This document shows, piece by piece, positions 55,139 to 58,440 of a stretch of DNA of 62,236 bases. The notes below the pieces were generated by a model that saw only the letters and a list, made by a program, of their open reading frames with translations, did not search any database and had not been told where the DNA came from. How positions within the stretch are numbered: position 1 is the stretch's first letter; every line of letters starts with the position of its first letter. The DNA is from a virus. Its lineage: Duplodnaviria; Caudoviricetes. The stretch spans positions 1 through 62,236 of the IMG/VR virus record IMGVR_UViG_3300032237_000390; one strand, 5' to 3'. The translations under genes were made by a program, and so were the position numbers.

Positions 55139-55363
55139 TTAAAAAGTTAATGTTTCAAAGTCTGTGAACATAAATATTTTTGCCTTGTGGAAACGTTTCT
55201 TCAAGGCATTCAAAAGTATGTCATTGTCATACTCTTCGTACCCGTCACGCTCTTGCATTACAAGTGGATTGATTACCTCAACGATGTCTTGCTCCGTGAG
55301 GTCGGTCAATAGATAGAAATCTTCTTCTTCGTAGGCTGTTGTGTTGATTCTGAATACTTGCAT
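55139..55363 (-). CDS. Hypothetical early protein
   Basis: Probable start is ATG 55363 (MQVFRINTT...), after ATCAAATCAAATCAAA. Confidence 0.7.
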   Translation of the reverse strand: MQVFRINTTAYEEEDFYLLTDLTEQDIVEVINPLVMQERDGYEEYDNDILLNALKKRFHKAKIFMFTDFETLTF

Positions 55364-55381: not shown

Positions 55382-55424
55382 GGACTGCATCGGGAGTCGA
55401 ACCCGAACTACGACCATCGCAGTC
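55382..55424 (-). ncRNA. tRNA-like minihelix A (acceptor stem + T-arm, no anticodon arm)
   Basis: GACUGCG-(11 nt)-UCGGG-UUCGACU-CCCGA-UGCAGUC-C. Confidence 0.75.
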
Positions 55425-55430
55425 TGAGGA

Positions 55431-55601
55431 TTACTCCTCGGTGAAAATATCTACACCATACTTCACCTTCTTGGGTATAGGGTAGATGGTATAAAGGGCA
55501 TCGAGGTATCTGAGGAATTCTTCCCTATCCTTGTCGGATAGGTATAGGATTCTGTCAATTGTCCCTTGTAGTAGCATAAGCCTTTCGTGTTCTGATAACA
55601 T
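55431..55601 (-). CDS. Hypothetical 56-aa protein
   Basis: MLSEHERLMLLQGTIDRILY...DIFTEE*; below the ORF-track cutoff. Confidence 0.6.
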   Translation of the reverse strand: MLSEHERLMLLQGTIDRILYLSDKDREEFLRYLDALYTIYPIPKKVKYGVDIFTEE

Positions 55602-55626
55602 ACGTTTACGTTTAAGTTTACAATGA

Positions 55627-55642
55627 GTGTCTTTGAAGACAC
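55627..55642. repeat. 16-bp near-palindrome, copy 7 (reverse orientation)
   Basis: Exact GTGTCTTTGAAGACAC. Confidence 0.95.
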
Positions 55643-55713
55643 GGATTACTAAGTTACTGAATACTTTTTACACCGATTTTTTTGCTTTTGTTATTTAATT
55701 TTAATTTGATGAG

Positions 55714-55767
55714 CACACGGGGAGGGAATCGAACCCTTCACTTGACAGACCATTCTGCACCCCGTGT
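55714..55767 (-). ncRNA. tRNA-like element B (acceptor stem, mini D-arm, T-arm, no anticodon arm)
   Basis: ACACGGG-GU-GCAGA-AUGG-UCUGU-CAAGUGA-AGGG-UUCGAUU-CCCU-C-CCCGUGU-G. Confidence 0.7.
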
Positions 55768-55808
55768 AAAACCCCAATGTAGACACATCGGGGGTAGTAA
55801 ACCAATCA

Positions 55809-56915
55809 CTATGCACCATAACTCAATACTTCGTGCTCTGCGAACCAATCATTACATCCACTGCAATGGTAGTTACAGAACCCATCATGAACAAGGTCAT
55901 GAAAACAATTTATACAGACGGGCTTCTCATTTTTCACATCAAAGTCATTGTCATCGTCAATAAACTCGTCAAGATACAACTGCCTACCAATAATTCTCTC
56001 AGCCTCCAACACCTCCTCTTGGTCTTCCTCCCACCACTTCTTAGTCTCAGCCTCCTTGATAAAGCTGAACGTCTGACTATAACTCTCGTGAACCTCTTGC
56101 CCTCTGTACTTCTCGGCAAGATTAAAGTATATCCAACACGTCAACACCCTTCCGTCTTTCATCTTGATAGGTATCTGCTTTCTACAATACCAATGAGGGT
56201 GACCCTCAAGGGCATCCAACTCATTTACCTTGTCATCAGTAACCTTAAACACATCAACCTCAACATTGTGCCCGATACCCTTCATATCGAGGAGGTAAGG
56301 CAACCCGCTAATGATAAGCGGGTAATTGTCTTGCGTCTTACCTTTGCCAACATGCTTAGATGAGGTCAAGAACCGATTGTAATTGCTGTATCCCTTCTTA
56401 AGGGTACCATACACCGCAACCAAATTATCCTCAAGAACATTATTCTTGCTATACCAAACACCATCACGCTGTGTCCACAACTCTTTGTTGTATATCTGAT
56501 ACGTCCGATTGCGTGTATTGATTGTCACGAACCTACTATTATGCTTCTCCAACTCCTTCTTCCACTTGTGTCTTGGCACTTTACCCAATGACTCAGCAAG
56601 CACCCTTGAGTCACTCTTCTTGGCATCCCCCAACCCGAAGATTGTGCCGTTCATCATGAGCCACTCATTGCGATTCGCACCGCATCTGAAGGGGTGGGTA
56701 TTCTCTTTACCAATTGCACCGATTGTAGCATAGCGAAAGTGAGCAATGAACGGACGCTCTGTATCCAACACTGCGTGCTGAGATGATTTGTGATAGGTAA
56801 CCTCAAAGGTATCCAACCAAATAATTCCCAACCCATGTGGATTGATTCTGCCTGAGGTCTTGGCGACCTCCTTGGGTAGCAGTTTACCCTTCTGCTTGAT
56901 AATAATTACACACAT
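55809..56915 (-). CDS. Class II (Ntn) glutamine amidotransferase fused to gamma-glutamylcyclotransferase (AIG2-like), with C-terminal Zn finger
   Basis: N-terminal MC, NPHGLG, HFRYAT, HPF, NG; then VAVYGTLKKG...LD.LEG.P..Y.R; CINC...CSGC. Confidence 0.9.
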   Translation of the reverse strand: MCVIIIKQKGKLLPKEVAKTSGRINPHGLGIIWLDTFEVTYHKSSQHAVLDTERPFIAHFRYATIGAIGKENTHPFRCGANRNEWLMMNGTIFGLGDAKKSDSRVLAESLGKVPRHKWKKELEKHNSRFVTINTRNRTYQIYNKELWTQRDGVWYSKNNVLEDNLVAVYGTLKKGYSNYNRFLTSSKHVGKGKTQDNYPLIISGLPYLLDMKGIGHNVEVDVFKVTDDKVNELDALEGHPHWYCRKQIPIKMKDGRVLTCWIYFNLAEKYRGQEVHESYSQTFSFIKEAETKKWWEEDQEEVLEAERIIGRQLYLDEFIDDDNDFDVKNEKPVCINCFHDLVHDGFCNYHCSGCNDWFAEHEVLSYGA

Positions 56916-56934
56916 TTGATTTGATTTGTGAGCA

Positions 56935-56950
56935 GTGTCTTTGAAGACAC
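56935..56950. repeat. 16-bp near-palindrome, copy 8 (between promoter and start codon)
   Basis: Exact GTGTCTTTGAAGACAC. Confidence 0.95.
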
Positions 56951-56978
56951 AGAACTCGATTAATGAACTGATAATGCA

Positions 56979-57010
56979 CGAAGATAATACAATAATTGAA
57001 CACTACCAAA
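56979..57010 (-). promoter_or_regulatory. Bacteroidota sigma-A-like promoter
   Basis: TTTG-N20-TATCTTCG on the - strand. Confidence 0.6.
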
Positions 57011-57011
57011 T

Positions 57012-57167
57012 TTATTTTTTGGCACTGAACCTACTCCGATTCAGATTTGGATGAAGGTATAAGTACTTGTAGTAAGCCTTCTCGACCGCCTCCCACTTGG
57101 TATGGGCAACGATTAGACAGACCAACTCTTTGTCATAATACACCTTGAATAAGTGATTTGATTCCAT
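57012..57167 (-). CDS. Hypothetical 51-aa protein
   Basis: MESNHLFKVYYDKELVCL...SAKK*; AATCA leader directly after hammerhead 1. Confidence 0.65.
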   Translation of the reverse strand: MESNHLFKVYYDKELVCLIVAHTKWEAVEKAYYKYLYLHPNLNRSRFSAKK

Positions 57168-57180
57168 TGTGATTTGATTT

Positions 57181-57249
57181 GGTTAAGACGGGGTTCACAC
57201 GGTTTCCCGTGTGATTCCGTTTCGCTGAACTACAGCTCATCAGTTAACC
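57181..57249 (-). ncRNA. Hammerhead ribozyme HH1 (type I)
   Basis: GGUUAA-CUGAUGA-GCUG(UAGUU)CAGC-GAAA-CGG...CCG-UC^UUAACC; predicted cut 57187/57186. Confidence 0.93.
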
Positions 57250-58026: not shown

Positions 58027-58078
58027 GGTTAAGACCCCCCGAAGGGGGTTTCGTTCATTCAGAACTCATCAGTTAACC
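58027..58078 (-). ncRNA. Hammerhead ribozyme HH2 (type I)
   Basis: GGUUAA-CUGAUGA-GUUC(UGAAU)GAAC-GAAA-CCCCC(UUCG)GGGGG-UC^UUAACC; predicted cut 58033/58032. Confidence 0.95.
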
Positions 58079-58311: not shown

Positions 58312-58363
58312 AGTGATTTGATTTTTTGGTTTCCGATGGGGGTCACACGCTCTGTGTGTAATT

Positions 58364-58412
58364 CCGTTTCGCTCTTATGAGCTCATCAGCAAGGGCAATT
58401 ACCCTTGGACGG
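58364..58412 (-). ncRNA. Hammerhead ribozyme HH3 (type III)
   Basis: CCG-UC^CAAGGG(UAAUUG)CCCUUG-CUGAUGA-GCUC(AUAA)GAGC-GAAA-CGG; predicted cut 58408/58407. Confidence 0.92.
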
Positions 58413-58440
58413 TTACACAGCCCCGAAGGGCTGTGTAATT

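Follow-up and report, generated by a model that had tools for sequence, protein, structure and literature searches.

On the minus strand of IMGVR_UViG_3300032237_000390, a Caudoviricetes sequence of 62,236 nt that was analysed as a whole and is here called the window, two short elements, A and B, fold into a 12-bp stack of acceptor and T arm carrying a canonical T-loop. Element A is a member of a large family of AUGGUCNNAG minihelices, a family apparently undescribed so far, and element B is a variant with a mini D-arm that belongs to one lineage and lies outside A's family. Both are positionally equivalent to hammerheads at corresponding junctions. Our preferred reading, held with some reserve although we lean towards it, is that A and B mark, in cis, the sites at which host RNase P, and perhaps RNase Z too, would cut the early polycistronic RNA.

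Structure and surroundings of the two elements

The folds reported in an earlier note on this DNA are present on the minus strand (Table 1), where the sequence and the minimum-free-energy folds agree, and the motif AUGGUC that it had read in both elements is found in both. A and B show the features of a tRNA-type fold, namely a 7-bp acceptor on a 5-bp T stem, a T-loop of the form UUCRANY and the G53-C61 closure, with A forming a 7+5 stack and B either a 7+5 stack with one A-C mismatch or an 8+4 stack. The interval between acceptor and T stem measures 11 nt in A and 22 nt in B, and neither element forms a cloverleaf with an anticodon arm. Strict descriptor scanning of the entire window, on both strands, returned A and B as the sole matches; a loose descriptor scan of the loci was too noisy to be used, with 293 matches vs 137-166 in shuffles. 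Fold energies were unremarkable against shuffled sequences, with -15.4 kcal/mol for A (z -1.57; 14 of 200 shuffles equally stable) and -21.4 kcal/mol for B (z -2.69; 3 of 200), so that energy by itself argues only weakly for either element.

Table 1. Positions of elements A and B, their parts and neighbouring features in the window
Feature	Position	Strand	Description
Element A	55382-55424	-	Anticodon-less tRNA-like minihelix (sequence and fold)
A, acceptor	55424-55418 with 55389-55383	-	7 bp, one G-U pair
A, interior		-	11-nt linker AUGGUCGUAGU, then 5-bp T stem, T-loop UUCGACU
A, discriminator	55382	-	C
Hairpin 5' of A	55426-55439	-	5 bp, GUAA loop; 1 nt 5' of A
A-rich leader UCAUCAAAUCAAAUCAAA	55364-55381	-	18 nt; between A and AUG 55363
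74-aa ORF	55139-55363	-	Begins at AUG 55363, downstream of A
Element B	55714-55767	-	tRNA-like, mini D-arm, without anticodon arm (sequence and fold)
B, acceptor	55767-55761 with 55721-55715	-	7 bp
B, interior		-	GU, 4-bp mini D-stem (loop AAUGGU), 6-nt connector
B, T arm		-	4 pairs and A-C mismatch (alternatively 8+4 stack); T-loop UUCGAUU
B, discriminator	55714	-	G
Hairpin 5' of B	55768-55793	-	9 bp (55793-55772) and UUUU; between stop of 368-aa gene and B
CUCAUCAAAU motif 3' of B	55704-55713	-	
Recurrent hairpin copy GUGUCUUCAAAGACAC	55625-55644	-	Between B and next ORF (AUG 55601)
368-aa gene	55809-56915	-	Upstream of B; anchor for finding relatives
Type I hammerhead	57181-57249	-	Core motif; cut after C57187, 19 nt before AUG 57167
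Type I hammerhead	58027-58078	-	Core motif; cut after C58033, 18 nt before AUG 58014
Type III hammerhead	58361-58415	-	Rfam RF00008, 38 bits, E 1.3e-4; gathering score 48.5

Known RNA classes did not accommodate the two elements. As the earlier note had expected, ARAGORN rejected A and B as tRNAs and reported 0 tRNAs in the window; on 35 family loci it called no element, and the few tRNA genes that it did report lie elsewhere. The tRNA family RF00005 gave no match to A or B at E<=10, and over the window no Rfam family reached its gathering score. At E<=10 the matches to A and B consisted of a mascRNA resemblance and tmRNA T-loop fragments, and nothing else. The former, A as a mascRNA-menRNA (RF01684), scored 22.6 bits vs a gathering score of 42.5 (E 0.99). 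The latter, A and B as the tRNA-like domain of tmRNA (RF00023), were 15-nt T-loop matches alone, of 11-13 bits, the 3:70 pair being C-G in A, A-U in B and G-U in no family member, and an ARAGORN tmRNA search of the window found none. Neither element is a hammerhead (RF00008), since the CUGAUGA ... GAAA core is absent from both; it occurs at three other sites in the window.

A and B share a layout of hairpin, element, A-rich leader of 16-38 nt and AUG, and both adjoin borders of mosaic gene cassettes. As with t-elements, they are placed on the sense strand of a polycistronic unit, between a stop and the next start. The UAA stop (55433-55431) of ORF 55431-55601 sits inside the hairpin 5' of A, which is identical in the locus L006 and has analogues immediately 5' of minihelices in L022, L074, L082 and L119; the hairpin 5' of B differs in sequence in L006 and is retained there at the same site. 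Directly 3' of both elements stands CUCAUCAAAU, as had been claimed, and these are the only two exact copies in the window, where 14 matches occur at no more than one mismatch. The spacing of 18 nt between A and AUG 55363, likened in the earlier note to that of the hammerhead cuts, indeed compares with 18 and 19 nt between the type I cuts and their AUGs, and hammerhead cuts also precede a AAAUCAAAUCA-type leader, as seen after A. In L006 the CUCAUCAAAU motif after B is followed by an AUG 19 nt on; in the window a 190-nt deletion, together with a change of ATG to ATA, has removed the corresponding ORF, leaving B without a following ORF. The protein encoded by the 368-aa gene resembles class II glutamine amidotransferases at its N-terminus and contains a gamma-glutamyl cyclotransferase domain (Pfam PF06094, E 2.7e-21; PHROG 2520). 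About 19 nt upstream of the AUG of this gene lies a plain hairpin, and similar hairpins occur at many junctions.

The minihelix family of element A and the single-lineage element B

Members of the family are 42-43 nt long and combine a 12-bp acceptor/T stack with a linker AUGGUCNNAG of 10-11 nt and a T-loop UUCGAYU. Model R2, made of 27 sequences from other phages with the window excluded, matched A with 45.2-45.3 bits (E 1.8e-8 and 1.9e-9), which places A within the family; model R1 gives A 59 bits. The earlier note had proposed a check for covariation across related phages, and compensatory changes are plentiful across the 27 diverse members, in which 323 of 324 stem cells are paired (99.7%). 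The observed values of paired percentage, both-side changes and covariation score were reached by 0 of 500 shuffles, and those of the two measures that count pairs or pair types by 347 and 4 of 500, while controls with a slid register were 43-58% paired; the acceptor columns were unconstrained by the retrieval pattern with which members were collected. Among the 324 cells 11 are wobble pairs (G-U or U-G), an indication of RNA on this strand. The stack is divided as 7+5, 6+6 or 8+4, always with 12 bp, and acceptor sequences differ freely among members. By position, 92 of 95 members have the T-loop UUCGACU, 86 a purine at 73 and at least 90 a C at 74, and CCA follows the discriminator in one.

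The family is represented in cultured phages of Gordonia, Streptomyces and Mycobacterium (among them Gordonia phage Cafasso on G. rubripertincta with four copies, Streptomyces phage Dagobah on S. coelicolor with two and Mycobacterium phage LittleCherry on M. smegmatis with one) and in more than 120 bacterial loci, with enrichment in Actinomycetota phages and mobile elements. Its members often form same-strand arrays in successive intergenic gaps between small genes: Cafasso carries copies in three gaps among CDS 149-154 and a fourth elsewhere, and a Nonomuraea locus has five on one strand, 266-770 nt apart. Where a genome holds several copies, the stems differ and the shape stays constant. Elements start at a median of 10 nt past the upstream stop, and the AUG follows them at 16-38 nt. 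All family counts exclude 59 long-form loci of IMG/VR, almost identical to one another, that fit the pattern of A; these lie near tRNA genes and have no obvious adjacent 5' acceptor strand. That A belongs to a very widespread family was not known to the earlier note, which was made without searches. No description of the minihelix was found in Rfam or in the literature searched; the supplementary motif lists of PMC5737381 and PMC3088659 may contain relevant entries. The Pleft non-coding RNA, described as abundant in mycobacteriophages L5 and D29 (PMC5712189), was rejected as a carrier, R2 giving none in D29 and a partial T-arm-like match in L5 (E 0.009).

Element B is identical at 54 of 54 positions to its counterpart in its closest relative, L006, in which the neighbouring ORF matches at 138 of 171 (81%) and the spacer before that ORF at 21 of 41. 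R2 finds in B a local T-arm match only (15.1 bits, E 0.15), which leaves it outside the family; B contains AUGGUC, as A does, and differs in its D-stem and its longer connector. A scan for B-like architecture elsewhere gave 91 distinct matches, of which 32 had at least 11 of 12 stack pairs; when the upstream sequence was reversed or shuffled as a control, 25 and 26 reached that level, and enrichment was seen for perfect 12/12 stacks alone (10 vs 2 and 4). Since these figures are near those of chance controls, no B family is claimed. Element A is identical to that of L006 at 41 of 43 positions, and both changes fall at the variable NN positions of the family.

Exchange with hammerheads and a proposed processing of early transcripts

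With the 368-aa gene as anchor, 80 related loci were retrieved. The junction after this gene showed a Hammerhead_3 match in all nine relatives searched with Rfam (E 8e-8 to 0.03), and a motif census of 81 junctions found a strict hammerhead core at 11, a variant core at 27, a tRNA-like element at 3 (those of the window, L006 and L007) and neither at 40. Of 22 homologues of the ORF after A, 7 are preceded by a hammerhead and 2 by a tRNA-like element, and the other 13 have no such element upstream. As about half of the junctions carry neither element, processing at any given junction would be dispensable. In the 80 loci T-loop cores lay 12 times on the coding strand and once on the opposite one, and strict hammerhead cores 88 times vs 0. 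The hammerheads exchanged with minihelices have an intact catalytic core, and an exchange partner of this kind argues that cutting matters. The rare and sporadic occurrence of the elements in this phage group, the lack of family support for B and the loss of the ORF behind it speak against RNase P/RNase Z signals. Over the whole records of 50 relatives R1 matched four at E<=0.01, and in the Elemovirus isolates, the nearest named phages, no element stood before the homologous ORF.

According to the reading that we prefer, A and B would keep, on a leftward early transcript, only what tRNA end-processing enzymes measure. The retained parts would be the coaxial acceptor/T-stem stack of 12 bp, the canonical T-loop and a few nucleotides including GG, which may cap the T-loop to form an elbow like that of a tRNA. 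A cut by host RNase P at the 5' border of the element would make the upstream mRNA terminate right past its stop codon and protective hairpin, and the downstream mRNA would begin with the minihelix, which would serve it as a base-paired cap. Alternatively, an RNase Z cut after the discriminator could free the downstream mRNA with an unstructured leader of ~18 nt. With the features that the enzymes measure retained and cuts at their edges, the minihelices would do the same job as the hammerheads that this phage and its relatives have at equivalent junctions. We infer both the enzymes acting on A and B and cleavage itself. The role as processing signals that the earlier note had proposed is supported by comparative anatomy; a hammerhead-like cut on the 3' side, which requires RNase Z, is the less certain half of its proposal. 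A purine at 73 and C74, with CCA almost absent, are no less suited to RNase P contacts than to RNase Z. The conserved linker AUGGUCNNAG and C74 exceed the known minimal need of these enzymes, an observation that tells against a bare RNase P/RNase Z substrate, and they could mark another partner.

That same surplus of conservation (linker, T-loop UUCGACU in 92/95, purine discriminator and C74) would also be expected if minihelices of 42-54 nt, excised by RNase P and RNase Z and then given CCA, acted in trans through their shape as tRNA-mimic decoys or sponges, with acceptor-end-modifying or -cleaving defence toxins, tRNA-modifying enzymes or EF-Tu as proposed targets. We regard such a role, which the earlier note had offered as its alternative, as unlikely. 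It would agree with multiple copies per genome that differ in stem and not in shape and with the enrichment in Actinomycetota phages and mobile elements, and acceptor-end nucleotidyltransferase toxins are known in Actinomycetota hosts. Excised plant mitochondrial t-elements are, in the account cited, stable RNAs (PMC1920247). Against decoys, the tight stop-to-start placement and the swap with hammerheads fit a role in cis and would be unneeded in trans, and acceptor sequences vary so freely that they preserve neither the identity for one synthetase nor a sequence-specific target. Both roles might be joined in one element, which would serve in cis for RNase P/RNase Z operon cutting, interchangeably with hammerheads, and once excised as a CCA-tailed 42-nt defence decoy, within a widespread undescribed class of Actinomycetota and Bacteroidota phages and integrative elements; one tRNA top-half freed per early message could then soak up defence enzymes that target acceptor ends or elbows. 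We give little credence to so far-reaching a combination.

It also seems rather improbable that the elements are uncut structural insulators or stabilisers, stable compact folds that would prevent an A-rich ribosome landing site from pairing with coding RNA upstream and would block exonucleases. A plain hairpin does take a similar place ahead of the 368-aa gene, as others do at many junctions, 40 of 81 junctions manage without ribozyme or tRNA-like element, and the spacing to the AUG is held at 16-38 nt. For this purpose, however, a plain hairpin would be enough, which leaves the invariant tRNA T-loop, the GG linker, the exact 12-bp stack and the conserved positions 73-74 unexplained, and the partner in the exchange is a ribozyme whose catalytic core is intact. 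A role in terminating transcription, or as sites of recombination or integration in the DNA at cassette borders, we consider very unlikely. Their position at the borders of mosaic cassettes, their GC-rich stems and the frequent targeting of the T-arm portion of tRNA genes by integrases would agree with this, but no U tract follows them and a terminator scan makes no call there; coding-strand bias and G-U wobbles fit RNA rather than a DNA site, the 5' acceptor strand is present, unlike in attP fragments, and same-strand arrays of up to five copies lie within operons. Decayed tRNA gene remnants, now functionless, are scarcely credible, for despite the likeness to tRNAs, a 94-nt odd tRNA-like gene in L032 (ARAGORN tRNA-???) and intermediates with extra arms such as L022:1740, the stems have stayed perfectly paired through many compensatory changes, identity with L006 (B 54/54, A 41/43) exceeds the 81% of the flanking ORF, the loss of arms is precise and leaves an exact 12-bp stack, and the genomic position is constant across unrelated phages.

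Related systems and implications

A close parallel to the proposed cis processing at A and B is offered by the t-elements of plant mitochondria, which, as described by Forner et al. (2007, PMC1920247), guide RNase P and RNase Z to the places where mRNA ends are made. In that description they are, like A and B, non-decoding tRNA-like folds in mRNA precursors beside coding regions, with a conserved T-arm GGTTCRANYCC; their edges set mRNA 3' and 5' ends and they can be released as small RNAs. They differ from A and B in being organellar, non-canonical cloverleaves of ~74 nt, as against a 42-nt minihelix with a fixed linker motif, and in having mapped RNA ends. Other RNAs reported as cleaved by RNase P include phage M3 RNA, C4 antisense RNA and operon mRNAs (PMC11143913). 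Hammerheads flank prophage genes in the report of Perreault et al. (2011, PMC3088659), and those described there lie, as the minihelices do, between genes of long phage transcripts and just 5' of start codons. The two types of element swap at the same junctions in this phage group; hammerheads are self-cleaving, with a 5'-OH and a 2',3'-cyclic phosphate as the resulting ends, whereas minihelices lack a catalytic core and would depend on host enzymes, which leave a 5'-phosphate.

A tRNA-like fold within a longer transcript is likewise seen in mascRNA and menRNA (MALAT1, NEAT1; RF01684), RF01684 being the sole whole-element Rfam resemblance of A; these RNAs differ in being eukaryotic and in forming a cloverleaf with a reduced anticodon arm. 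An RNase P cut at that fold makes the 3' end of the upstream RNA. In phage T7, RNase III sites between early genes punctuate the polycistronic transcript and leave protective hairpins, with an enzyme and a recognition structure that differ from those proposed for the minihelices. The tRNA-like domain of tmRNA and the tRNA-like module of bacterial YrlA Y RNAs resemble A and B in having acceptor, T-arm and a D-loop-like stretch with no decoding anticodon arm, but tmRNA needs a G3:U70 pair and an mRNA-like domain, unlike A and B. YrlA of M. smegmatis is cut by RNase P and gains CCA (Chen et al. 2014, PMC4201824); YrlA RNAs are circularly permuted, running from the T arm through a closed acceptor hairpin to the D arm, and adjoin a Ro60 gene, whereas A and B have the normal tRNA order and no Ro60 neighbour, and the permuted topology rules out a YrlA identity.

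A clearly defined RNA family with strong covariation comes out of the analysis. Gene and tRNA finders overlook it, and its members carry no annotation in the cultured phages of Gordonia, Streptomyces and Mycobacterium or in the many actinomycete genomes that contain them. Their presence in cultured phages makes the idea directly testable at the bench, and the family offers a compact natural part of ~42 nt for operon insulation or processing. If the preferred reading is true, phages of at least two bacterial phyla would recruit host tRNA-processing enzymes by means of a minimal tRNA mimic, a form of mRNA punctuation documented so far mainly in organelles and in a few eukaryotic long non-coding RNAs, and tRNA mimics and self-cleaving ribozymes would be evolutionarily interchangeable modules.

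Two tRNA-like minihelices in the early-gene block

The IMG/VR record describes a complete genome of 62,236 bp with direct terminal repeats, and Elemovirus (Flavobacterium podophages) was found to be distant kin of this phage. Structural and replication genes occupy the + strand and the 45-53 kb region; from 52 to 62 kb the - strand carries small early-type ORFs in a leftward block, and both minihelices, elements A and B, are located within it.

Features of the window that are discussed in the text
Feature	Position	Strand	Description
Element A	55424 to 55382	-	7-bp acceptor-like stem, 11-nt linker AUGGUCGUAGU, 5-bp T stem, loop UUCGACU, discriminator C
Element B, 5' part	55767 to 55714	-	7-bp acceptor, 2 nt, 4-bp D-like stem with loop AAUGGU
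Element B, 3' part	55767 to 55714	-	6-nt connector, T arm with loop UUCGAUU, discriminator G
368-aa gene, upstream of B	55809-56915	-	amidotransferase-like N-terminus and gamma-glutamyl cyclotransferase domain
Promoter-like sequence, upstream of the 368-aa gene	56916-57015	-	TTTG, ~20 nt, TAtcTTcG
74-aa ORF, downstream of A	55139-55363	-	
Hairpin core GUCUUCAAAGAC	2537, 16396, 23458, 36627, 38413, 48195, 52263, 55629, 56937, 58443, 59364, 60250		palindromic

The folds that the earlier note had claimed for both elements were reproduced exactly by minimum-free-energy folding, with unexceptional energies (z -1.6 for A and -2.7 for B). As that note had anticipated, ARAGORN counted no tRNA across the window, and an Rfam scan of the window gave no match reaching the gathering score. 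A strict acceptor/T-arm descriptor, run over both strands of the whole window, matched A and B only, and CUCAUCAAAU lies 3' of both without a third exact occurrence in the window. The spacing between A and AUG 55363 is 18 nt, and a small hairpin holding the upstream stop codon sits 1 nt 5' of A. The hammerhead ribozymes to which A and B had been likened were also located, as three CUGAUGAG...CGAAAC cores on the - strand (expected number 0.01). Type I ribozymes account for two of them, with cuts 18 nt before AUG 58014 and 19 nt before AUG 57167, and the remaining one is of type III (Rfam 38 bits, E 1e-4). Sequence, folds, motif, spacing and hammerheads all agreed with the initial observation in every particular.

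The 368-aa gene is a fusion whose class II amidotransferase-like N-terminus begins MC, and it is kept in at least 80 related phages. Its promoter-like sequence, which we take to be of the Bacteroidota type, is followed by a 5'UTR hairpin ending ~19 nt before the AUG. Twelve copies of the hairpin core GUCUUCAAAGAC are present in the window, where 0.79 would be expected; with one exception they are oriented with the surrounding genes. In 80 related loci the coding strand has 168 copies and the opposite strand 9. The core stands 5' of hammerheads and minihelices, and in one relative (L044) makes up stem III of a hammerhead. It probably serves, at the RNA level, as a 3'-end or stability hairpin.

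A family of minihelices around element A

Minihelices of the same shape with differing stems were detected in the related loci L027, L038, L074 (two copies), L072, L022, L034 and L082, and in a model-fitted alignment of 12 matches 91.9% of the cells were paired, with double-sided changes in 10 of the 12 pairs. More than 107 IMG/VR loci matched a pattern restricted to the linker and T-arm core; among them, 35 distinct sequences share a regular 42-nt form, consisting of a 6-bp acceptor, AUGGUCNNAG, a 6-bp T stem, UUCGAYU and the discriminator. The 12-bp total of the stack is common to this form (6+6) and to A (7+5). One cluster of 59 further, near-identical long-form loci was left out of the family counts; in these contigs (L090-L195; for example L091:5200-5345) the linker/T-arm pattern is matched, the adjacent 5' acceptor strand is absent, and the neighbourhood includes real tRNA genes as well as an ARAGORN tRNA-??? 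whose T arm is similar. Relatives also carry intermediate tRNA-like forms: a 94-nt element (L032:6895-6988), called by ARAGORN as tRNA-??? with a 4-base anticodon, and a 61-nt three-way junction (L022:1740-1800; z -4.3) whose short extra arm ends in a 4-nt loop.

Across 27 diverse members aligned without gaps, 323 of 324 cells were paired and 8 of the 9 variable pairs had changed on both sides, whereas slid controls were 43-58% paired. None of 500 shuffles matched the observed percentage paired, the cells changed on both sides or the covariation score; measures counting pairs or pair types were matched by 347 and 4 of 500, respectively. Since the acceptor columns lay outside the retrieval pattern, their pairing counts as evidence independent of it. 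A covariance model (R2) derived from the 27 members, with the window excluded, matched A with 45 bits (E 1.8e-8 in the 563 kb searched, 1.9e-9 in the window with filters off), which makes A a member of the family. Only the T arm of B was matched (E 0.15), and B therefore stands outside it. None of the elements in the 35 family loci scanned was called as a tRNA by ARAGORN, whose five tRNA genes there (in three loci) lie elsewhere; Rfam 15 holds no family for the minihelices, the best whole-element likeness of A being mascRNA-menRNA (22.6 bits, E ~1).

BLAST against cultured phages revealed the element, unannotated, in phages of Gordonia, Streptomyces, Mycobacterium, Arthrobacter and Corynebacterium. 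Gordonia phage Cafasso carries four copies on a single strand, three of them in intergenic gaps among CDS 149-154, Streptomyces phage Dagobah carries two and Mycobacterium phage LittleCherry one. In Cafasso (L199:2501-4700), a cassette of a short CCGCGAGGCGG-like hairpin, GGCACCCAACA and a Shine-Dalgarno sequence recurs downstream of each minihelix; the whole intergenic module, and not the minihelix alone, appears to be repeated. In bacterial genomes more than 120 loci match the pattern, mostly in Streptomyces, Nonomuraea and Streptosporangium but also in Hymenobacter and Corynebacterium, and 124 of 139 matches combine a perfect 6-bp acceptor with at least five of six T-stem pairs. Same-strand arrays are frequent among these loci; one in Nonomuraea, with five copies 266-770 nt apart next to GntR, NUDIX and WhiB genes, resembles an integrative element or prophage. 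Elements start a median of 10 nt past the upstream stop codon (45 copies examined). Leaders, read by eye because automatic next-start distances were unreliable, span 16-38 nt in Bacteroidota-type phages and reach up to the Shine-Dalgarno sequence in actinophages.

Among 95 distinct well-paired members drawn from IMG/VR and bacterial loci, the T-loop is UUCGACU in 92, the discriminator is a purine in 86 and a C follows it directly in at least 90, with CCA in a single member. The commonest triplet at this position is CUC (30/95), and B likewise has G and then CUC.

Exchange with hammerheads at the same junctions

The 368-aa gene served as anchor to retrieve 80 related IMG/VR loci. In these relatives the stop codon of the gene is typically followed by a GC-rich hairpin around GUGUCUUCAAAGACAC, then a type III hammerhead, an A-rich leader of 20-25 nt and the AUG, and Rfam placed a Hammerhead_3 match at this junction in all nine loci searched (E 8e-8 to 0.03). 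In the window the order is stop codon, 9-bp hairpin with UUUU, B and leader, B occupying the position of the relatives' ribozyme. A motif census of 81 such junctions gave 11 strict cores, 27 variant cores, three tRNA-like elements (in the window and in L006 and L007, the two relatives closest to it) and 40 with neither. Upstream of homologues of the 74-aa ORF (22 loci) there is a hammerhead in seven, a tRNA-like element in two (the window and L006) and nothing in 13. Minihelix and hammerhead substitute for one another at shared junctions. Across the 80 related loci (534 kb), the strict hammerhead core was found 88 times on the coding strand and never on the other, and the T-loop core 12 times and once, respectively.

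The variant core (CUGAUGA-UUCC...GGAU-GAAAC, with U,U and not G-C at positions 10.1/11.1) is common ~60 nt past the 368-aa gene (L012, L015, L017, L022-L025, L028, L030-L035 and others) and scores lower in Rfam (30-36 bits); such hammerheads may be slow or regulated ribozymes.

Beyond the window, B occurs only in L006 and L007, in identical form. Its 54/54 identity with L006, against 138/171 in the adjoining ORF and 21/41 in the spacer before B, its hammerhead slot, and the AUGGUC, T-loop and 3' CUCAUCAAAU in common with A suggest that B is functional. The spacer retains its hairpin despite the differing sequence. In L006 an AUG lies 19 nt after B; in the window (55602-55713 versus L006:4199-4507) a 190-nt deletion and a change of ATG to ATA have removed the small ORF after B. 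A scan of other phages for B-like architectures gave attractive single cases but overall, perfect stacks excepted, about as many as the controls, and hence no family is claimed for B.

Candidate signals for host processing enzymes

The conserved parts are exactly those read by tRNA end-processing enzymes, namely the 12-bp stack, the canonical T-loop and GG, which could cap the T-loop into an elbow, and the decoding parts are removed. Acceptor/T-arm minihelices are substrates of both RNase P and RNase Z. The 3' end of tRNA pairs with RNase P RNA, with which purine 73 and C74 are consistent, and RNase Z can be blocked by CCA, so that the scarcity of CCA fits an unblocked enzyme. In plant mitochondria, mRNA ends are generated by both enzymes under the direction of tRNA-like t-elements (PMC1920247), RNase P cleaves several RNAs of phages and operons (PMC11143913), and gene-flanking hammerheads of prophages have been interpreted as operon-processing devices (PMC3088659). 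Given these features and precedents, together with the hammerhead swap, A and B are most likely host-enzyme processing signals. The role that the earlier note had proposed, equivalent to that of the ribozymes, agrees with the layout and the swap, while the enzymes and the cutting are what we infer. A cut by RNase P at the 5' edge would leave the upstream message ending at its own hairpin. The downstream message might then retain the minihelix as a paired cap at its 5' end, in parallel to the type III hammerhead, or RNase Z might also cut past the discriminator and leave an 18-nt leader, as would the window's type I hammerheads. Against processing count the sporadic occurrence of the elements, R1, another covariance model of the minihelix, matching 4 of 50 whole records of the phage group, and the roughly half of junctions with neither device.

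Alternatively, the minihelices may act in trans as decoys; their invariant linker exceeds what a minimal substrate requires and may be a sign of some other partner. Terminators or DNA-level sites are unlikely in view of the coding-strand bias, the G-U pairs in the stems, the missing U tract and the arrays inside operons. That A and B are relics, a reading for which covariation across related phages had been put forward as the test, is very unlikely, as conservation and the covariation present among the 27 members of A's family contradict it.

A tRNA-like processing signal is an already known kind of element, and we found no description of this minihelix in the literature, motif lists in supplementary files aside. 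The novelty appears to lie in its compact form of 42 nt, in its wide spread among phages and mobile elements from two bacterial phyla, and in its interchangeability with hammerheads.
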